The notes below the pieces were generated by a model. That model had not been told where the DNA came from. It did not search any database and was given only the letters and a program-made list of their open reading frames with translations. From Longimicrobiales bacterium (GTDB lineage Bacteria; Gemmatimonadota; Gemmatimonadetes; Longimicrobiales; Gaopeijiaceae), in NCBI GenBank assembly GCA_965249725.1, contig OZ252251.1:726324-790323 (forward strand): a stretch of 64,000 nt of DNA, written 5' to 3'. Positions within the stretch are counted from its first letter, which is position 1, and every line of letters starts with the position of its first letter. The position numbers and the translations under genes are program-made. Shown in pieces: positions 11,465 to 20,809 of this stretch.

Positions 11465-13408
11465 TCACGGCCGGGGAGCGACCCTCACCGAAGTGAATGC
11501 GGGGTCGAGGTAGGAGATCCCCACATCGTCCACCACGACCGTGCCGGCGTCGGTCCGGTCGAAGACGAACCGGATCTCCCTGAGGCTTCGGAGATCCAGG
11601 GCCGGCCGGAGCCGTGTGAAGTCCGACAGCGGAATCGAGTACGTCTGTAGCACCAACTCTGCGAGCTCGGTGAACCGCTCTTCCTCCAGATCACCTCGCC
11701 GGAGGATGTGCGTCTCGAGTGGGCGCCGAATCGGCCCGTATGAGCTGAGGGCCACTCTAGCCGAACGACCCTGAGAGTCGACCACCTCGATACTGAGGTC
11801 GACAGGCTCGTCGTCGTCCTCGTCGTCCTCCGCATCCTCACCCTCGTCATCCGTATCGGCTCCCTCCTCGTTCTGCGTGCTGTCTCCCGCAGCGTCCCTC
11901 GGCCCCGGCACGTCCTCGGAAACGGTCAGCGCAATCTGAAGGGACGCCCCCTCTCCCAACCTCCAAGCACGACCCAACGTGTCCGGCACGGAGACGGTAA
12001 ACGTCGAAGGGCGACCCAACTCCTCAGATCCTTTCACCTCTCGGTTCCAGCCCAGCCAGAGCGCTTGGTTCATCTGTGTCGACGAGGTAGTGGGCCGATT
12101 GCGCGAGCGCAGCACCATCTCCCTCTCTCTCCAGGTGGAGAGACTGTCACCGCTCAGGACCACCCCGGCGGCACTGCCTGTGGTCACGTCGATATCCTCT
12201 TCGAACGTGGCCAACGGCTTGAACGTGCCGTCCTCGAACCGAGTCACATACATGGTCTTTGGCAGCCATCCACCGGCAACCCGGTGGTCCCGGAAGAGCG
12301 GCAGAAACTCCGGGTTGCCCCGTAACGAATACTCCAGGAACGCGGAGACGTAGATTCTCGCAAACTCCTGCTGCTCGCTCGGCTCGAGCAGGGGTCTCAG
12401 GTCGAGGGTCCGACCGCTCCGTGGTCCGTTGTCGTGAGGACCCCACACACTGTTCCACTGACCGTGATTCGCCCGATAGACGAAGACGGCCGTCTTCAGG
12501 TGAGGCAATCCGTCGGTGAACTTCACGCGATCATAGAGCCGAAGTCCGTGGAAGCTCGTGACATCCCCGTCGTGCGAACCATGGAACACCATGTAGTTCA
12601 CGTTTTCGACAGGCACGAATCGGTCCGTAGGGAGATACTGCCCGTCGACTGGAGCGATGGCGATGATCGCCTTGATGTCGAAGTTGAAGTCGAACGTCAG
12701 GTTGGCATCGTCGGGGTAGTGGCTGAGCCGGTTGAACGCCGCGGCATGCCCGACCGCTCCCCCGCCCCTGCTGTGTCCCATGAGCGCAAGGTTCTTTATA
12801 TCCACCTTTCCGAAGAACGGGTTCTCGGCGTCTTGGTTGAAGCCGCCCCACGCCTCGAGGTGCTTGAGGAGAAGCCAGCCCCTCGCATCGTTCTCCTGCC
12901 GGATTCCCCCGTTCACGAAATTCATGTCGATCGACGCCAGGATGTAGCCGCGACTCGCCAGGAGCTCACCCAAGTAGTCGTATCCGGGGTCCGAATAGTC
13001 CCGCATGTTGTGATTGCCGTGCACCACCAGCACGAGCGGGAAGAGTCCGGCGCCATCGGGATACCAGACACGCCCGTTCAAGGGGAACTCCTCGGGAGTG
13101 AAGCCCCAGTAGTCATTCCTGGAGTCGGCCTGATCTCCGAGATCGATGAGCTTCGATGCGTCGACGCTCGCGGTGGTGAACTCGACGCCCTCACGGTACT
13201 CGTCACGGTTCTTGTCGTCACCGTGCCCATAAGTAAGGGTGCGTACCGAGAACGGCCCCCGAGAAGCAGGGCTCGATCCCTCCATGAGCTGCCGAGCCAG
13301 AACCGTGGGATGGTCGCTCTCTTCGAGCTGCACCGCACCACGACAACCAGCGATCAAAAGGACCATCAACCCCGCGACGACGAGGCGGCGATGACTCGGA
13401 AAATCCAT
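11465..13408 (-). CDS. alpha/beta-hydrolase lipoprotein
   Basis: Lipobox IAGC; VHGNH, GHSRGG nucleophile elbow, DGDV, ANHGQWN. Confidence 0.85.
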   Translation of the reverse strand: MDFPSHRRLVVAGLMVLLIAGCRGAVQLEESDHPTVLARQLMEGSSPASRGPFSVRTLTYGHGDDKNRDEYREGVEFTTASVDASKLIDLGDQADSRNDYWGFTPEEFPLNGRVWYPDGAGLFPLVLVVHGNHNMRDYSDPGYDYLGELLASRGYILASIDMNFVNGGIRQENDARGWLLLKHLEAWGGFNQDAENPFFGKVDIKNLALMGHSRGGGAVGHAAAFNRLSHYPDDANLTFDFNFDIKAIIAIAPVDGQYLPTDRFVPVENVNYMVFHGSHDGDVTSFHGLRLYDRVKFTDGLPHLKTAVFVYRANHGQWNSVWGPHDNGPRSGRTLDLRPLLEPSEQQEFARIYVSAFLEYSLRGNPEFLPLFRDHRVAGGWLPKTMYVTRFEDGTFKPLATFEEDIDVTTGSAAGVVLSGDSLSTWREREMVLRSRNRPTTSSTQMNQALWLGWNREVKGSEELGRPSTFTVSVPDTLGRAWRLGEGASLQIALTVSEDVPGPRDAAGDSTQNEEGADTDDEGEDAEDDEDDDEPVDLSIEVVDSQGRSARVALSSYGPIRRPLETHILRRGDLEEERFTELAELVLQTYSIPLSDFTRLRPALDLRSLREIRFVFDRTDAGTVVVDDVGISYLDPAFTSVRVAPRP

Positions 13409-13682
13409 GGTCTCTTCCTGCTGTCTGCGGGCGGGACCCAAGAGGTCGGGCCCATACCCTGTCTGGTTCTCGGCGCCTTCACCGCGGATTCTAGGTAGCG
13501 GGTAGCCCGAAGGGCAATTCCTGTCGGGCCGGGCCAAAGGCTGGACCCCGGGCGTCACGTTGGCGAATGTTCCGGGTCACTACAGGGAGTCATGCTCGTT
13601 CCTGACCCATGCTTTCCACGCCACGGAGGAGCCGACGACCGGTCCGCCCACTGGTTCGCCCACTTCAGCAACAGGTGAGTCC

Positions 13683-14168
13683 ATGCCGAATCGCATCGCA
13701 CAATTCACGACCAATCAAGGCGAGTTCAAGGTCGAGCTCTTCGAGGAGCGCGCACCCGAAACGACGAAGAACTTCATCGACCTCGTGGAGAAGGAGTACT
13801 ACGACGGCATCGTCTTCCACCGCGTCATCGAGGGGTTCATGCTTCAGGGCGGATGCCCCACGGGCAACGGCACGGGCGGCCCCGGCTACACGATCGCCGA
13901 TGAGTTCCACCCCGAGCTGCGGCATGACGTCGAAGGTGTTCTCTCGATGGCCAACGCCGGCCCCAACACCGGCGGCTCACAGTTCTTCGTGACTTTGGCC
14001 CCCACGGCCTGGCTCGATGGGAAGCACGCGGTCTTCGGCAAGGTCGTCGACGGCATGGACACCATCCGGGCTATCGGCACGACCGCCACCGGCCCAGGAG
14101 ACAGACCTCTTCAAGAGATCGTCATGGAGCGGGTCGAGATCGTGGGACAGGGCCAGGAAGCCGACTGA
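13683..14168 (+). CDS. cyclophilin-type peptidyl-prolyl cis-trans isomerase
   Basis: FHRVIEGFMLQGG, LSMANAGPNTGGSQFF, WLDGKHAVFGKV. Confidence 0.95.
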   Translation: MPNRIAQFTTNQGEFKVELFEERAPETTKNFIDLVEKEYYDGIVFHRVIEGFMLQGGCPTGNGTGGPGYTIADEFHPELRHDVEGVLSMANAGPNTGGSQFFVTLAPTAWLDGKHAVFGKVVDGMDTIRAIGTTATGPGDRPLQEIVMERVEIVGQGQEAD

Positions 14169-14278
14169 CAAGCATTCTTACGTTTGTCTCGGAATCGTAA
14201 CATTCTGTTGCGTTTTCGGGGAAATAGGTAAATATATTAACAGCTAAGCCTGCTGACCTCTCAGAGGTCAAGTAGGCT

Positions 14279-14291
14279 TAAGTTGTTGATA
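14279..14291 (-). promoter_or_regulatory. IHF-binding consensus site
   Basis: Minus strand TATCAACAACTTA fits WATCAANNNNTTR, about 30 bp upstream of the sigma-54 promoter. Confidence 0.55.
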
Positions 14292-14318: not shown

Positions 14319-14335
14319 TTGGCACCGAGATTGCA
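14319..14335 (+). promoter_or_regulatory. sigma-54 (-24/-12) promoter
   Basis: TTGGCACCGAGATTGCA fits YTGGCACN5TTGCW with GG-N10-GC spacing; 58 bp before the operon's first ATG. Confidence 0.85.
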
Positions 14336-14392
14336 TATACCACCCTCACCCGCATGATCTCGGAGTTGTCGTCGACCTGACGGAGGAGAAGG

Positions 14393-15010
14393 ATGTTTAG
14401 GAAGAGAGACGTTTGGCGCATACTGCCTTTCGCCGTGCTGTTCGGTGTTTGGTCCTGCACCGACACACCGACGGACGAAGGCCCCGCCGCGCCCGCTGAG
14501 GGCTTGGCATCTGCGTTCTTCGAAACCGCTCCAGCACCCGGCTTCGCGGCCCACCAGTGGCGTGACTCGCGAGAGAGCCAGATGACGGTGACGCGCACCA
14601 TCGGCGCGGAGGGGGGCGTGATGGAGTTCCGGAAGCTCGGAGCCTCGATCGTCTTCCCAGAGGGCGCCCTCTCGGAGGCAACAACGATCGAGGCGAAGGC
14701 GATCGCCGGCCCGGTCGTGGCCCTCGAGTTCAGTCCGCATGGCATCGACTTTGGCGTGCCCGTGCAGATTCGCATCAATGCACGCATGCTGGCGCCCGGA
14801 TGGGGCGGGAGCCTCGAGAGCGGCGACGAGCTGGGTGAGCACGACGGCGAGGTCCTGCGTCGGCACCTCTCGAAGCTCATAGGCGTCTACTATGTGGGCG
14901 GTCACACATCAGGCGCTGCCCCTCTGGAGACTCTGCCGATGTTCTTCGAGGACGGAGATGTCGTGCTCGAAGTGAGGCACTTCTGCGGCTACGCAGTGGC
15001 GTCGGGTTAG
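14393..15010 (+). CDS. ZU5-like domain lipoprotein with C-terminal HF|C motif
   Basis: Lipobox VWSC; IGAEGG...GASIVFPEGAL and FSPHGIDFGVPVQI ZU5-like patterns; ends VRHFCGYAVASG; GGAG RBS. Confidence 0.75.
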   Translation: MFRKRDVWRILPFAVLFGVWSCTDTPTDEGPAAPAEGLASAFFETAPAPGFAAHQWRDSRESQMTVTRTIGAEGGVMEFRKLGASIVFPEGALSEATTIEAKAIAGPVVALEFSPHGIDFGVPVQIRINARMLAPGWGGSLESGDELGEHDGEVLRRHLSKLIGVYYVGGHTSGAAPLETLPMFFEDGDVVLEVRHFCGYAVASG

Positions 15011-15066: not shown

Positions 15067-16128
15067 ATGAACCGCGCCATTGACGTGACAAGTGAATCTC
15101 CGGAAGAGAGACAGGTCAGGGCGGGCGATCTCGCCCGTGCGGGCCGAGAAGCGGAGACCCAGGGAGCCCTAGGTGACTCCCTGGAGAAGCTGACCGCGGC
15201 GTTGGACCTTCTTCCCGATAACGAACCGTCGCCGCTCCGAGCCGACATCCTCCGGTGGCTCGGCACGACGCTTCGCGAACTCGGGCAAACGACCGATGCC
15301 GAGTCCCGCTACGAAGAGAGCAGTGCCCTCTCGCGAGACATCGCATACGGAACCGGCGAAGCCCACGCCCTGAACTGCCTCGCGATCATTGCCCAACGGC
15401 GGGGCGACATGAATGCCGCCCAGTCCAGGTATCGACAGGCCGCGCGCCAGGCAAGCGACTCGGGAGATCACCGACTCGCCGGAATGGTCGAGCAAAACCT
15501 CGGCGTCCTCGCGAACATCCAAGGAGATCTGGACGGTGCCCTCGTGCGCTACCGGGCCAGCCTCAGGGCGTTCGAAGAGGGCGATTTCGAGGAAGGCATG
15601 TCGTGGGTGCTCAACAATCTGGGCATGCTCCACACCGACCTCGGCAAGTACGACGACGCTGAGGAGCACTTTACCCGCGGCCTCGATATCGCCCGCCGTC
15701 GGAAGGACCTTCATACTCAGGCTCTTCTGGAATCGAACCTCGCCGAGGTCTACATCCGACTCGAGCAATGGGAAGCGGCCGAGGCCTACGTAGAAAGGGC
15801 GCTCGGCATCGCTGAAGAGAGGGGCGACCCACTCCGGAAGGCCGACGCTCTCAAGTTCCTCGGCATGATCCAGCGGGCCCAGGGTCACCTCTCCCTCGCA
15901 GACGAGTCTCTTTCGAGCGCCAATCGTCTCGCAGAGGAGAGTGAAGACGCCCTGCTGGCCGCAGAGGTGTGCCGGGAATTGGGGGAGACCCGTGCCCAGA
16001 TGGGACAATACCCTGATGCCACCGAGCTCCTGGAGCGCGCCGTACGGCTCTTCAGAGAAATGAACGCGTCGCTCGACGCCACCAAGGCACAAGAGCGATT
16101 GGATCGGATCCATGCGGACTCCGAATAG
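15067..16128 (+). CDS. stand-alone tetratricopeptide-repeat protein
   Basis: 353 aa of about 40-aa TPR-like repeats (AHALN, QNLGVLANIQGD, LNNLG); no signal peptide. Confidence 0.9.
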   Translation: MNRAIDVTSESPEERQVRAGDLARAGREAETQGALGDSLEKLTAALDLLPDNEPSPLRADILRWLGTTLRELGQTTDAESRYEESSALSRDIAYGTGEAHALNCLAIIAQRRGDMNAAQSRYRQAARQASDSGDHRLAGMVEQNLGVLANIQGDLDGALVRYRASLRAFEEGDFEEGMSWVLNNLGMLHTDLGKYDDAEEHFTRGLDIARRRKDLHTQALLESNLAEVYIRLEQWEAAEAYVERALGIAEERGDPLRKADALKFLGMIQRAQGHLSLADESLSSANRLAEESEDALLAAEVCRELGETRAQMGQYPDATELLERAVRLFREMNASLDATKAQERLDRIHADSE

Positions 16129-16152: not shown

Positions 16153-17211
16153 GTGAGCTATCAACTCGCCAGCAGAGAAGTAGAAGAGACTGTCCCGACC
16201 GGCGACCGCACCGCCACCGATATCGGCTTTCAGGCGATCATCGGGGAGGGCGCCTCGCTCAAGAAGGCGATCGATTTCGCCAAGAGGGTGGCGACCCGAA
16301 AACTGACGACGGTCCTCATTGTGGGAGACACGGGCACCGGCAAAGGCCTGTTCGCCCGCGGCATCCACTACGCCAGCCAGGATGCCCAGGAGCCTTTCGT
16401 CACGGTGAACTGCGCGGCCATCCCCGGGAACCTCCTCGAGTCCGAGCTGTTCGGACACGAACGCGGGGCGTTCACGGATGCCCGGTCGCGGAAGCTGGGT
16501 CTCCTAGAATTGGCAGGAGCAGGTACGCTCTTCCTCGACGAGGTCAGTGAACTGCCTCCCAACCTTCAGCCCAAGCTGCTGCGGGCACTCGAGGAGAGGC
16601 GCTTCCGGAGAATCGGAGGCACGGAGGAGATCGCGGCCAAGTGCCGCCTGCTCGCTGCCGCGAACAGTTCGTTCGAGGATGCGTTGAGCGAAGGGCGTTT
16701 CCGCGAAGACCTGTTCTACCGACTCAACGTCCTCCGCATCAACGTCCCTCCCCTGCGGGAGCGCGGAAAGGACCCGGAGTTGCTGGCGCGCCACTTCATG
16801 GCCGAGATCGCTCGCGAGATGGGCATTGCGCCGAAGGCCCTCCGCAAGGACGCCGTCGAGGTCCTCAATCGCCACGACTGGCCAGGCAATGTCCGAGAGC
16901 TGAAGAACGTCATCCAACGGGCCATCGTGCTGACCGACGGACCGGCCGTGCGTGCCGAGCACCTCAGCATCTTCGGTCGGGCGAGAGTGGACGGGGATGC
17001 CCCGGAGGACCGGGACCGTTCGATCCACATTCCACCCACGGGTCTGCGCCTGTCTGAGATCGAAGCTCAAGCGCTACGCATCACCCTCGACATTACCGGG
17101 GGAAACCGAAGCGCCGCTGCCCGCATTCTCGGCCTCTCTCGGCCCACGGTCCATCGTAAGATCCGGGATTACGGTCTCGACGATCGCAAAAGTCTCGACG
17201 CCACCGCGTGA
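16153..17211 (+). CDS. sigma-54-dependent activator (bEBP) lacking an N-terminal sensor domain
   Basis: GDTGTGK, ESELFGHERGAFTDA, LFLDEV, WPGNVREL, Fis-type HTH; AAA+ domain begins about 25 aa from the start. Confidence 0.95.
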   Translation: MSYQLASREVEETVPTGDRTATDIGFQAIIGEGASLKKAIDFAKRVATRKLTTVLIVGDTGTGKGLFARGIHYASQDAQEPFVTVNCAAIPGNLLESELFGHERGAFTDARSRKLGLLELAGAGTLFLDEVSELPPNLQPKLLRALEERRFRRIGGTEEIAAKCRLLAAANSSFEDALSEGRFREDLFYRLNVLRINVPPLRERGKDPELLARHFMAEIAREMGIAPKALRKDAVEVLNRHDWPGNVRELKNVIQRAIVLTDGPAVRAEHLSIFGRARVDGDAPEDRDRSIHIPPTGLRLSEIEAQALRITLDITGGNRSAAARILGLSRPTVHRKIRDYGLDDRKSLDATA

Positions 17212-17215
17212 CATC

Positions 17216-18937
17216 GTGGAATCGACCACCGCCCTGGGAATCCCGGAGGGTGCCCGAAGCCTGATCGCAGAGGCCAGGGCCGCGGAGCGGCGGGCGCGCC
17301 GAAGCCGCGCCCGCGCGTGTTACGAAGAGGCCCTACGTAGCCTGAATGGCTGGGAACACGGTGCCCTGGCCAGCGCCATCCTCCGGTGGATCGCCCGCAC
17401 CCATTACGAAAGCGGACACCTCGCCGCTGCGATGGACTGCTTCGAGGCGGCCCTGGCCGTAGCCGACGCCCACGACGACATGCTGGGCAAGGCGCACGCC
17501 CTGAACGGCAAGGGCATCGTCGAGCAGCTCCGCGGCAACCTCGAGACGGCTGCCGCCCACTTCGCGTGGAGCCTGGATCGGGCCTCGCGCGCCGGTGACG
17601 CCGCCCTACCCGCGATGATCCATCAGAACCTGGGTGTAATCGCCAACATCCAGGGCGACTTCGCGGAGGCCCTCGTCCAGTACCGCTCCAGCAAAGACGC
17701 GTACGACCGGCTGGGTGAAGACGATCGAGTGGGTCCTCTTCTCAACAACATCGGCCGTCTGCATACGGACCGTGGAGAGTGGAGCGAGGCCGAGGCGGCG
17801 CTCGAAGAGGCGAGCCGTCGCTGTGTCGAATCAGGCGACGTGGACCATCACGTCCACGCTCAGGTGAACCTCGCGCGCCTCTGGATCGCCCGAGGGGACC
17901 TAGAGCGAGCCCGGGCCTCCTGCGATACCGCGTGCAACGTCTCGCGCGATGTCGCGGAGGGTCGATGGTCCGGAGAGATCTTGAAGCACTACGGCACCAT
18001 CTACCGGCTGACCAAGCGACCGGAACTCGCGCTCGACTCTCTGCGACAGGCGCGACTCCTCGCAGATGACCAGAGGAACACGCTCTTGGCCGCCGAGATC
18101 GCACGAGAATTCGCCGACGTCTACGCCGATCAGGGGCGGAATCGGGACACACTGAGGGCGCTGAACGAGTGTCTACGACTCTTCTCGGAGTTCCAAGCCA
18201 AGCACAACCTGGCCGAGGTGAGGGACCGGATCTCTCGTCTCGAGTATCGCTTCCTGGACGTGGTCTGCTCCTGGGGAGAGTCCATCGAATCGAAGGACCG
18301 CTACACACAGGGTCACTGTGAACGAGTGGCGGACCTGGCCTGCGCCCTGGCGACCGCGGCCGGCCTGGACAAGGACGTTCTGACCTGGTTCCGCATGGGC
18401 GCGCTTCTCCACGACCTCGGCAAGATCGCCGTGCCCTCGTCCATTCTGAACAAGCCGGGCGCCCTTACGGCGGAGGAGTGGGTCATCATGAAGCGGCATC
18501 CGGAAGCCGGGGTCGAGCTCCTCCAAGGCATCGAGTTCCCATGGGACATCCGACCCATGCTGCGCCACCACCACGAGCGCTGGGACGGATCTGGATATCC
18601 GCACGGCCTGATGGGGGCCGACATCCCCCTTTCAGCTCGGATCCTGTGCCTGGCCGACGTGTTCGACGCTCTCACGACAGACCGCAGCTACCGGAGTGGA
18701 CTGCCCCCCGACCAAGCGATGTCGGTCATGCGGAACGAGGCAGGCTCCACATTCGACCCGCACCTGTTCGGCGTGTTCGAGGGCTTGTCTCAGGACTCCC
18801 CTCGGCGGTGGGCGACACGCTCGGCCCGCGATCGCCGCCGCAAGCCGGTGGGCACGCCACACCTCATACCGGTGGCGGGGGCGCTCAGCTCGCCCATCCC
18901 TCGCCGAACCCTGCCGCCGCAGGAAATCTGGGCCTAG
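17216..18937 (+). CDS. TPR-domain HD-GYP cyclic-dinucleotide phosphodiesterase
   Basis: N-terminal TPRs; YTQGH, LHDLGK, HHHERWDGSGYP, ADVFDALT; GTG start just after the bEBP stop. Confidence 0.9.
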   Translation: MESTTALGIPEGARSLIAEARAAERRARRSRARACYEEALRSLNGWEHGALASAILRWIARTHYESGHLAAAMDCFEAALAVADAHDDMLGKAHALNGKGIVEQLRGNLETAAAHFAWSLDRASRAGDAALPAMIHQNLGVIANIQGDFAEALVQYRSSKDAYDRLGEDDRVGPLLNNIGRLHTDRGEWSEAEAALEEASRRCVESGDVDHHVHAQVNLARLWIARGDLERARASCDTACNVSRDVAEGRWSGEILKHYGTIYRLTKRPELALDSLRQARLLADDQRNTLLAAEIAREFADVYADQGRNRDTLRALNECLRLFSEFQAKHNLAEVRDRISRLEYRFLDVVCSWGESIESKDRYTQGHCERVADLACALATAAGLDKDVLTWFRMGALLHDLGKIAVPSSILNKPGALTAEEWVIMKRHPEAGVELLQGIEFPWDIRPMLRHHHERWDGSGYPHGLMGADIPLSARILCLADVFDALTTDRSYRSGLPPDQAMSVMRNEAGSTFDPHLFGVFEGLSQDSPRRWATRSARDRRRKPVGTPHLIPVAGALSSPIPRRTLPPQEIWA

Positions 18938-18973: not shown

Positions 18974-20809
18974 CTACCGATACCCTGCCGCCTGAAGGGT
19001 GAAGAGTTCGGCGTAACGGCCCTCCAGCGCGAGGAGCTCCTCGTGGGTCCCTTCCTCCTTCACGCTTCCGTGCTCGAGCACGACGATTCGATCGGCCATG
19101 CGCACCGTTGAGAAGCGGTGGGAAATCAGCACGGCCATTCTTCCGCGGGTCAACTCGGCGAACCGCTCGAAGACGTGGTATTCGGCCTTCGCGTCCAGGG
19201 CTGCGGTGGGCTCGTCGAGGATGAGTACTTGGGCATCACGCATGTAGGCGCGGGCGAGTCCGACCTTTTGCCACTCCCCGCCAGAGAGGTTGGCCCCACC
19301 GTCGAACCGTCGGCCGAGCATATGTTCGAAACCCTCTTCGAGCTCGGACACGACCGTGTCTGCCAGGCTGTCTTCGGCCGCTCGGGCGATACGCGACTGA
19401 TCCCCCAGGGCCTCGATCTGACCTACCGCGATGTTCTCCCGCATGATCAGATCGTAGCGGACGAAGTCCTGGAAGATGACCCCGATCGCCCGGCGCAACT
19501 CGCTCACGTCGTACTCCTTGAGGTCCACCCCGTCCAGGAGAATGCGTCCTTCATCGGGGTCGTATAGCCGAGCCAGGAGCTTCACGAGCGTGGTCTTCCC
19601 TGCACCGTTCTCGCCGACGAAGGCAACTCGATCGTCGGCCCCCAATCGGAGGGAGACGTTGCGAATGGCCCACCGGTCGCTGTCGGGATACCGGAAGCCG
19701 ACGTTCTCGAACACGATCCCGTCCTTGATGGGGCGAGGTATCGGCACCGGATCGGCCGGGCACGGAGCCGCAGGCGTCATCTCCAAGAAGGTGAAGAGAT
19801 CGCGGAGGAACAGGCTCTGCTCGTAGACGTCGGCGGAGCGCAACAGGATGCCACTGATCAGGGCCCTGCTACGCTGGCAAGACCCCACCAGGAATGTCAG
19901 GTCTCCTAGCGAGAGAACCCCGCGGACGGTATCGACGATGATGAAGACGCTGGCGGCGTAGTACCCCAGCGTCGACACCGCAGTCAGTCCGCCCGAAGTG
20001 GCCGCGCGCCTGGTCGAGAGTGCCTTGTTCGCTTCGTAGAACTTGTCCGCCAGACGTTCGTACTTCCGGGTGAAGTAGTCCGACAGACCGAAGAGCTTCA
20101 CTTCCTTCGCCGTCACGTTGCTCGTGGCCACGTACCGCAGGTAGTCCAGTTCCCTGCGCTCGGGGGTCCACTTGAACAGCAGCGAGTACGACAGACCGGC
20201 GAAGTGGGTCTCGCCGATGAACGACGGCAGTACCGCCACGACGAGCAGAAGCAGGAGCCAGACATTGAACGCCACGAGCACGACGAGAAGAGAGGCCAGG
20301 GTCAGGGCGCTTTGGCCGATGCCCAGAAGGAGTGCCACCAGCCCGATTCTCCCCACGGTCTGTCGGCGGGCCCTCTCGAGCGAATCGTAGAACTGAGGAT
20401 CCTCGAAGTTCTCCAGATCGAGCGTCGCGGCGTGCTCCATGATGCGCACGGAGAGGCGGTTGCCGAACAGGTCGGCCAAGAGACTCTCCAGAAGGTTGGA
20501 GGCTCTTTGGAAGAGGTCGGACACGAGGGCGACCGCCAGCTCCAGCGCCACCAGACGCATAATGCCCGTCCAGTCCGGCTGCGCGGCCCCGATGTTCGCC
20601 ACCACCGCATCGATGATGAGCTTCCCGATCCACAGCTGCACGACCGGTGAGAACGCGAGCACCAGCCGTAGCGATACGATCGCTGTGGCATAGTAGGGCT
20701 GGGCGCGCCAGACCATGCGCAGAAAGCGTGGCACAAGGCGGAGCGCCACCAAGCGCTCCCTGAAGGGTGGAAGATCGACGGAACGACGGCGCCCGAGACC
20801 CGGAGGCAC
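18974..20809 (-). CDS. ABC transporter, fused permease/ATP-binding protein
   Basis: TM domain; GENGAGKT, LSGGEWQK, LILDEPT. Confidence 0.95.
   Translation of the reverse strand: MPPGLGRRRSVDLPPFRERLVALRLVPRFLRMVWRAQPYYATAIVSLRLVLAFSPVVQLWIGKLIIDAVVANIGAAQPDWTGIMRLVALELAVALVSDLFQRASNLLESLLADLFGNRLSVRIMEHAATLDLENFEDPQFYDSLERARRQTVGRIGLVALLLGIGQSALTLASLLVVLVAFNVWLLLLLVVAVLPSFIGETHFAGLSYSLLFKWTPERRELDYLRYVATSNVTAKEVKLFGLSDYFTRKYERLADKFYEANKALSTRRAATSGGLTAVSTLGYYAASVFIIVDTVRGVLSLGDLTFLVGSCQRSRALISGILLRSADVYEQSLFLRDLFTFLEMTPAAPCPADPVPIPRPIKDGIVFENVGFRYPDSDRWAIRNVSLRLGADDRVAFVGENGAGKTTLVKLLARLYDPDEGRILLDGVDLKEYDVSELRRAIGVIFQDFVRYDLIMRENIAVGQIEALGDQSRIARAAEDSLADTVVSELEEGFEHMLGRRFDGGANLSGGEWQKVGLARAYMRDAQVLILDEPTAALDAKAEYHVFERFAELTRGRMAVLISHRFSTVRMADRIVVLEHGSVKEEGTHEELLALEGRYAELFTLQAAGYR

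Follow-up and report, generated by a model that had tools for sequence, protein, structure and literature searches.

A ZU5-fold lipoprotein ending in a natural HFC site belongs to a candidate self-processing peptide signalling unit in Gemmatimonadota

The window analysed here, a stretch of 64,000 nucleotides (64 kb) from a Longimicrobiales bacterium, contains four consecutive genes on the plus strand. They encode a ZU5-fold lipoprotein of 205 aa (14393..15010, preceded by the ribosome-binding site GGAGGAG at 14382-14388), a stand-alone tetratricopeptide repeat (TPR) protein of 353 aa (15067..16128), a sigma-54 activator (16153..17211) and a TPR-HD-GYP protein whose start codon is uncertain (17216..18937). 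The gaps between them are 56, 24 and 4 nt. No terminator-like site was found on the plus strand between 14100 and 19100, which is not proof of a single transcript. A cyclophilin gene (13683-14168) lies directly upstream and is syntenic in eight close loci; it was not seen in the first 29 phylum-wide loci, which have short flanks, and it probably marks an insertion site and is not part of the unit. Divergent from it is a gene for a membrane-anchored alpha/beta hydrolase of chlorophyllase/PETase-like type (11465-13558, minus strand), syntenic in the close locus L042. At the other end, a peptide-exporter-type ABC transporter gene (18974-20809, minus strand) is convergent with the unit and is kept in locus L040; a distant relative of this transporter is encoded upstream of the ZU5 gene in L023.

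The first gene product carries a predicted lipoprotein signal peptide (14393..14458) that ends at Cys22, a residue at least 90% conserved (alignments of 59 and 36 rows). Its lipobox is VWS-C, in which the W is atypical. A sequence-only reading of this DNA had taken the codons CAC TTC TGC GGC TAC GCA GTG GCG TCG GGT TAG (14978-15010) to close a ZU5-like lipoprotein, and both profile and structure searches bear this out. Pfam PF00791 (ZU5) matches the 205-aa product with 27.6 bits against a cut-off of 21, covering residues 67-102 only. The AlphaFold model has a mean pLDDT of 81.7 (core above 90) and, among 48,161 chains compared, its top four structural matches are ZU5 domains, namely those of ankyrin-B (Z 11.3, rmsd 2.9, 116 aligned residues), ankyrin-R (Z 10.0 and 9.5) and UNC5B (Z 8.5). 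GAIN (Z 7.6), CARD8 (Z 5.7) and Nup98 (Z 3.7) rank below these, and Foldseek agrees with the ZU5 assignment (E 7e-7). The protein has two cysteines, the lipid-site Cys22 and Cys198. No other copies of its terminal peptide and no paralogues were found elsewhere in the genome, where the second ZU5 match is a 606-aa protein without an HF motif. NCBIfam holds no family for this lipoprotein or for the ZU5-less precursors described below, and the ESM Atlas clusters that match it are Gemmatimonadota hypothetical proteins. A search for fused or longer ZU5 forms returned only five distant multidomain proteins (E 1e-10 or weaker), which is weak evidence. A link of the terminal peptide to a tmRNA-like tag was dropped, as no such tag was found in the 64-kb window.

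Sites upstream of the lipoprotein gene were sought with the sigma-54 and IHF consensus patterns. A sigma-54 -24/-12 promoter, TGGCACCGAGATTGCA, is present at 14320..14335 on the plus strand, 57 nt 5' of the start codon; it is the sole exact match in 64 kb, and three of 100 shuffled sequences give one. With at most one mismatch the site occurs in 11 of 12 close loci (L032-L043) and before 18 of 61 first genes across the phylum, the shuffle mean being 0.6 and the reverse strand giving none. This enrichment fits autoinduction, and rpoN is encoded in the genome. Three other exact sigma-54 sites exist in the genome (G000:C3:253090, 2344277, 2480105), each 58-77 nt before an ORF. Approximately 110-125 nt before the promoter lies a putative upstream activator site, CGTAA-N7-TTGCG (14196..14212, plus strand), at which ten aligned upstream regions show no or almost no variation in the GTAA and TTGC columns. 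The pattern has four matches in the 4.16-Mb genome against five and three for the control pattern; since these counts are alike and show no regulon excess, the support for the site is its conservation and not its rarity. An exact IHF-type site, TATCAACAACTTA (14279..14291, minus strand), sits between the activator site and the promoter and is exact in L042 too. It is the sole exact match within the window, yet 22 of 100 shuffles give one, so it is weak alone. An imperfect 36-bp palindrome without a T-run, TAAGCCTGCTGACCTCT-C-AGAGGTCAAGTAGGCTTA (14245..14280), is located between the activator and IHF-type sites, and its outer arms are kept in L042 only.

The stand-alone TPR protein (TPR_12, E 4e-43) is proposed to be a peptide receptor and a trans-regulator of the activator. 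No leader or membrane helix was found in the TPR proteins or the activator, and the highest 19-aa hydropathy of the stand-alone protein is 0.85, with no hydrophobic segment. Asn103, Asn144, Asn184 and Asn224 are at least 90% conserved in its family (92 rows). Among the best 60 of 169 PDB matches, its best natural ones are the TPRs of PINS/LGN and kinesin light chain, which bind extended peptides. The activator consists of an AAA+ domain (PF00158 from residue 29) and a Fis-type HTH (HTH_8, 300-340), with GAFTDA, Walker A/B and R-finger motifs and no N-terminal sensor domain; the PspF model matches it at E 2e-73, below the cut-off. Sensor-less sigma-54 activators are controlled in trans in PspF-PspA and HrpR/S-HrpV. 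The present protein resembles PspF and HrpR/S in having AAA+ and HTH domains only and a sigma-54 promoter with an upstream site and an IHF site, but differs in having a TPR protein as candidate regulator and a peptide as proposed input. The fourth protein (TPR_12; HD_5, E 1e-39; HD at 397-403 and GYP at 460) has the sequence hallmarks of an HD-GYP enzyme and is a predicted cyclic-dinucleotide phosphodiesterase. Four family-5 peptide-binding proteins were matched in the genome, all unlinked to the unit, and no importer gene is linked to it.

A profile of the ZU5 protein matched 120 of 201 sampled genomes, multidomain proteins counted in. The best high-scoring match of each of 60 genomes, picked regardless of neighbours, gave 60 Gemmatimonadota loci. 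A TPR gene was identified within 7 kb in 58 of these (one of the two TPR-less loci ends at a contig edge), with an HD-GYP fusion in 51 and an activator in 10; random 14.5-kb windows of the source genome gave 0.36%, 2.9% and 3.1%, respectively, although the locus counts are not independent because the genomes are kin. For 64 of 71 ZU5 ORFs the TPR domain begins at most 1.5 kb downstream on the same strand. In the source genome, the two TPR genes and the one ZU5 gene of these families are all at one locus; other genera of the same family have the TPR in none of 20 genomes and the ZU5 in one of 23. In a Myxococcota control genome, six ZU5 matches were all frames of 388-704 aa, and the 15 kb of the control locus L044 contain no TPR gene of this family. 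A second type of module was seen in L046, L048 and L064, with the order activator, ZU5 protein, TPR; the ZU5 protein ends in GFT or GFS (cut before the T or S) followed by RYA[IL]AY, and the His is absent. Passages of PMC3210808 describe Nup98 His mutants that still cleave, so these His-less proteins may be active. In L048, L075, L088, L094, L103 and L147, either two or three genes for ZU5 lipoproteins stand in tandem or the ZU5-TPR pair is repeated, the tails differing within a genome.

His196-Phe197-Cys198 (14978..14986) is a predicted autoproteolysis site, written HF/C below with the slash marking the cut. The sequence-only reading had proposed such a variant of the HF/S motif eight residues from the C-terminus, which is where it was found: the TGC codon of Cys198 occupies 14984-14986, and in the AlphaFold model the motif falls in the turn between strand 189-196 and the last strand, 199-204. 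The PIDD and CARD8 cleavage sites are described at the matching position in passages of PMC3210808. In the family alignment H and F are invariant and S is near-invariant, and the HFC of this lipoprotein aligns with them. TGC is present at the same site in L042, five other proteins with 64-80% identity to the lipoprotein have HFC, and six of six sequencing runs from six studies list no change at 14984-14986; the codon is therefore not a sequencing error.

Of the best 150 among 947 cluster representatives, 137 carry HFS, one carries HFC and 12 have neither; eight of these 12 keep a tail resembling GYAVASG, and the other four seem to be fragmentary or frameshifted. The 71 ZU5 ORFs of the 60 phylum loci divide into HFS (68), GFT (2), GFS (1) and HFC (0). 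For the close family, 59 of 64 matches were aligned, five fragments or frameshifted rows being left out; terminal HF[SC]GY.. is present in 24, the motif is absent in 32, and three are of other kinds. Conservation of a Ser, Cys or Thr nucleophile thus stands for the cluster representatives and the phylum but fails for 32 of the 59 close relatives, in which L, M, R, V, F, A, K and other residues precede GYAVASG; the presence of non-nucleophilic residues at this position would count against the predicted cleavage and was found in this part of the family.

In a quick tree the six HFC rows group in a single clade with an SH-aLRT of 99, nested among HFS rows, which points to one origin of HFC and makes it a single-clade variant. 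By comparison with L042, a TCN codon becomes TGC by one change when it starts from TCC. Since 91 of 205 columns are invariant among the six proteins, retention of the Cys in this clade is unremarkable. Passages of PMC3210808 and PMC13062082 describe Ser, Thr or Cys as able to start cis-autoproteolysis, and Cys as able to begin N-S shifts. The HF/C site is therefore plausibly active, and release of CGYAVASG through an N-S shift is chemically plausible. It had also been proposed that the cleavage would pass through a reactive thioester open to ligation, and this part finds no support. We consider it very improbable that the Cys yields a long-lived thioester through which the lipoprotein body is joined to an amine or thiol in the periplasm, as in Hedgehog proteins and inteins, or makes cleavage redox-gated. 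Cys thioesters of inteins and Hedgehog are attacked by other nucleophiles (passages of PMC13062082), and Cys198, the only Cys besides the lipid-site Cys22, is kept in all six clade members. These points are set against a single origin, the rarity of HFC in the representatives and phylum ORFs counted above, and sister lineages that tolerate many residues at this position. Furthermore, the HFC gene neighbourhood is the same as that of HFS orthologues, and no acceptor-binding domain or partner gene accompanies HFC in the gene, fold or neighbourhood. An intein/Hedgehog-type ligase has a HINT fold or an acceptor-recruiting region, whereas this protein has a ZU5 fold and ends seven residues past the Cys. 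Cys198 is likely to have replaced Ser conservatively in one lineage, without taking on a particular part in ligation.

The octapeptide CGYAVASG (14984..15007, plus strand), which forms the last beta-strand in the model, is the proposed signal. In the close family no 7-residue window is better conserved than GYAVASG, which reaches 0.95 in the 24 HF[SC] rows and 0.94 in the 32 motif-less rows, the latter keeping a tail of the form G[YFH]A[VT]AS[GSM]. HF[SC] has been lost several times independently in close relatives, with insertions of differing sequence. In the AlphaFold model of one HF-less relative, an exposed low-confidence loop replaces the motif and the tail is docked as a strand; GYAVASG is modelled as an integral last strand with a pLDDT of ~95 in this protein and in the HFC protein. 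Between syntenic loci, identity drops to 36-47% in the ZU5 body but stays at 64-76% in the TPR protein and at 73% in the activator. Only 7-8 residues follow the cleavage site in 61 of the 71 phylum ZU5 ORFs.

In strains at least 99% identical to the source, the six bases 15002-15007 are missing in five of six runs, with loss of the terminal Ser-Gly (P0221); the common allele of the species therefore ends CGYAVA. Position 18138 (codon 308 of the TPR-HD-GYP gene, before the HD domain) lacks one base in three of three covering runs, all of them Ser-Gly-less. The comparison at 18138 covers runs of the shortened allele, and the intact frame is the conserved one as judged from L042. In one Ser-Gly-less run the ZU5 gene is frameshifted as well (P0223). 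Single runs with 1-bp insertions were seen at 14901 (ZU5 gene) and at 14285 (IHF-type site). The co-loss of Ser-Gly and of the HD-GYP frame is one lineage event, a naturally decaying allele of the unit.

Such alleles bear on another reading of the cysteine, which is compatible with the peptide-signal reading preferred below: HF/C would be slowed or dead and the module relaxing, with maturation, if any, left to a trans-acting protease as in the HF-less sisters. This we hold to be unlikely, if worth serious consideration. HFS was lost repeatedly in the sister clade, frameshifted or truncated alleles occur in or near the HFC clade (P0007, P0223, P0221 and the 18138 deletion), the ZU5 gene of L039 and the TPR-HD gene of L034 look split, and L040 is without a TPR-HD gene. 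Engineered Ser-to-Cys mutants of Nup98/Nup145 and PIDD1 are reported to be slow and to be rescued by hydroxylamine. However, His and Phe are kept with no loop insertion in all six HFC proteins, down to 64% identity, and the four-gene unit and promoter of L042 are intact.

At the 29 best TPR loci of the order, a ZU5 gene is upstream in 16, a ZU5-less lipoprotein in eight, and neither was recognised by script in five, of which one is cut by a contig end and one has an SFS-ending ZU5-like ORF. Two of the 16 ZU5-linked loci come from unpublished genomes (G213, G097), as does one row of the ZU5 profile (G057), and no conclusion rests on them. The ZU5-less lipoproteins have 27-64 residues after the lipobox Cys and end in SGYISGGH, GGYIGVGQ, GGFMVSGG or LPAYGGG, with two to four tandem GGY[LM][SG]G[GV] copies in L114, L120 and L121. 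Mini-lipoproteins of this kind were seen before TPR-HD-GYP genes in L114, L117-L121, L126, L129 and L149 (Longimicrobiales, family f3); their terminal peptides are of the type G/S-G-Y-x-x-G-G, and they are likely unannotated as propeptides. The receptors that go with ZU5-less lipoproteins are interspersed with a ZU5-linked one (SGYLLGGG) in a single clade with 98% support (FastTree, 50 of 92 rows). The peptide is also duplicated after HFS in P0038, P0042, L077, L107, L108 and L110. Tandem or duplicated peptides are described as a hallmark of RRNPPA propeptides in PMC9765709 and PMC11343458. Taken from these sequences, the pattern suggests that the tail, and not the ZU5 fold, is the functional unit.

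An exported lipoprotein with partners in the cytoplasm would need a mobile link to them. The reading we prefer, and judge to be somewhat more probable than its negation, is that the ZU5 lipoprotein processes itself as a pro-peptide whose product is read by TPR receptors in the cytoplasm, an arrangement that resembles RRNPP without being RRNPP. The lipoprotein would be exported and lipidated at Cys22, and an N-S acyl shift followed by hydrolysis is predicted at Phe197-Cys198, equivalent to the N-O shift at HF/S. The last strand would then leave, either spontaneously or when the body unfolds or is proteolysed, and the peptide could be taken up by an Opp/Dpp-type permease, a family-5 peptide ABC system. 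Inside the cell it may bind a groove lined with Asn residues in the stand-alone TPR protein. This protein would control the activator, which has no sensor domain, in trans and thereby feed back on the promoter at 14320..14335; binding to the TPR part of the HD-GYP enzyme would change c-di-GMP. Besides the persistence of the tail, this reading is favoured by the linkage of TPR and ZU5 genes across the phylum, by their near-complete joint absence from other genera of the family, and by the joint loss of Ser-Gly and the HD-GYP frame. Some findings count against a peptide signal. Within families the tails vary little, with SRYAVAW/Y shared by many species, whereas many pherotype systems are diverse. 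The 27 weaker TPR paralogues follow a ZU5 gene in 11 cases, a short lipoprotein gene in one, an activator gene in two and nothing recognisable in 13, which thus have no recognisable precursor upstream, and an activator is near only 10 of the 60 loci.

Passages of PMC3210808 describe the strand equivalent to GYAVASG as crucial to the fold stability of UNC5b, and cleaved ZU5, GAIN and MAIN fragments usually stay associated (passages of PMC3210808 and of bioRxiv 2026.05.12.724683). The conservation of GYAVASG could therefore be structural and its release not automatic. A structural explanation, which we regard as improbable, makes the lipoprotein a plain sigma-54-controlled output of the TPR/c-di-GMP module, with a last strand that completes the fold and with pieces that, if cleaved at all, stay joined as in MAIN/GAIN. 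It agrees with the last strand being modelled inside the sandwich even in the HF-less relative, with fragments described as remaining together in MAIN domains and CARD8, and with the lack of a transporter linked to the unit. It leaves unexplained, however, why precursors that lack ZU5 share the terminal motif, tandem copies included, next to the same receptors, why duplications follow HFS, and why the ZU5 body drifts faster than the tail. For the pro-peptide reading, the association of cleaved fragments means that release may require the body to unfold or be turned over, and this would make the signal stress-gated rather than density-gated. A stress-triggered release of the strand, as earlier suggested, may occur; the earlier suggestion did not include a role of the cleaved piece as a signal for the adjacent TPR proteins, which is its most likely function.

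In ZU5 fold, in a cleavage site at the turn before the last strand and in the H-F-nucleophile motif, the lipoprotein resembles PIDD1 (HF/S), CARD8/NLRP1 (SF/S) and Nup98 (HF/S). It differs from autoproteolytic ZU5 domains in being stand-alone, in its tail of 7-8 residues and in its natural Cys. The bacterial ZU5 domains of Zhang et al. 2012 are found, in the passages of PMC3482391 that treat them, in large toxins and surface proteins and not beside TPR/HD-GYP. Microbial MAIN/GAIN domains (Brogan and Rudner, bioRxiv 10.64898/2026.05.12.724683) are described in parts of that preprint as belonging to bacterial surface proteins cut at HF/S whose fragments stay associated, and GAIN is the next structural match after ZU5. 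MAIN domains release large cargo domains, with no signalling assigned to the MAIN C-fragment in those parts, whereas the present protein is cargo-less at 205 aa; with ZU5 chains outscoring GAIN (11.3 vs 7.6), it does not belong to MAIN/GAIN. The main text of the preprint has no mention of ZU5, cysteine, lipoprotein, tetratricopeptide or Gemmatimonad. Proposed release of the last strand parallels the tethered agonist of adhesion GPCRs (aGPCRs).

The layout proposed here is like that of the RRNPP(A) systems of Bacillota (Rap-Phr, NprR-NprX, PlcR-PapR, AimR-AimP), in which the gene for a cytoplasmic TPR protein of 250-500 aa adjoins that for an exported precursor whose C-terminus is a short peptide (PMC10075063, PMC9765709, PMC11343458). 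The 353-aa TPR protein 56 nt downstream agrees with this, and tandem peptide copies and orphan receptors are further likenesses. The present unit differs in coming from a diderm phylum, in a precursor that is a lipoprotein with a conserved Cys22 instead of a soluble propeptide, and mostly a folded predicted self-protease of 170-260 aa, and in its proposed outputs, a sigma-54 activator in trans and HD-GYP. RRNPP(A) propeptides are given as 10-100 aa in passages of PMC10075063, a size that the 205-aa lipoprotein exceeds and the ZU5-less relatives have. Rap, NprR, PlcR and AimR are absent from the best 60 of 169 PDB matches of the TPR protein, and RRNPPA from its NCBIfam matches. The unit was not filed as RRNPP because of the propeptide size, its place outside Bacillota and its different outputs.

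Beyond PMC3482391, no literature joining ZU5 with TPR/HD-GYP or with Gemmatimonadota was found, in a search covering the main texts; the supplements of the MAIN preprint and Additional File 1 of PMC3482391 could list such proteins. A term search of PMC13197933 gave no matches. Peptide signals read by TPR proteins are described for Bacillota, with Pseudomonadota and Actinomycetota typically using small molecules (passages of PMC10075063). The gene set described here suggests a kind of peptide messaging of which no example has yet been described among Gram-negative bacteria, and the unit is a strong candidate for peptide signalling with self-processing in Gemmatimonadota. In its widest form, which we put forward tentatively and as slightly short of probable, the proposal is of a peptide system across the phylum. 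A lipoprotein with a ZU5 self-protease of animal type would shed its last strand as a pheromone, and TPR receptors would turn it into sigma-54 autoinduction and a c-di-GMP response. Among its members the nucleophile would repeatedly have been swapped (S, C, T), the self-cut replaced by a protease-accessible loop, or the ZU5 domain deleted to leave a Phr-like tandem propeptide, with natural signal-null and output-null strains. The natural HF/C protein is a ready test case for N-S versus N-O chemistry in a ZU5 domain. If the proposal is true, it would provide a bacterial counterpart of signalling in which the last strand is the agonist. It would also be a widespread diderm equivalent of the Bacillota systems that matures itself through the cleavage fold family of PIDD1, NLRP1 and adhesion GPCRs, and hence a new mode of bacterial communication.
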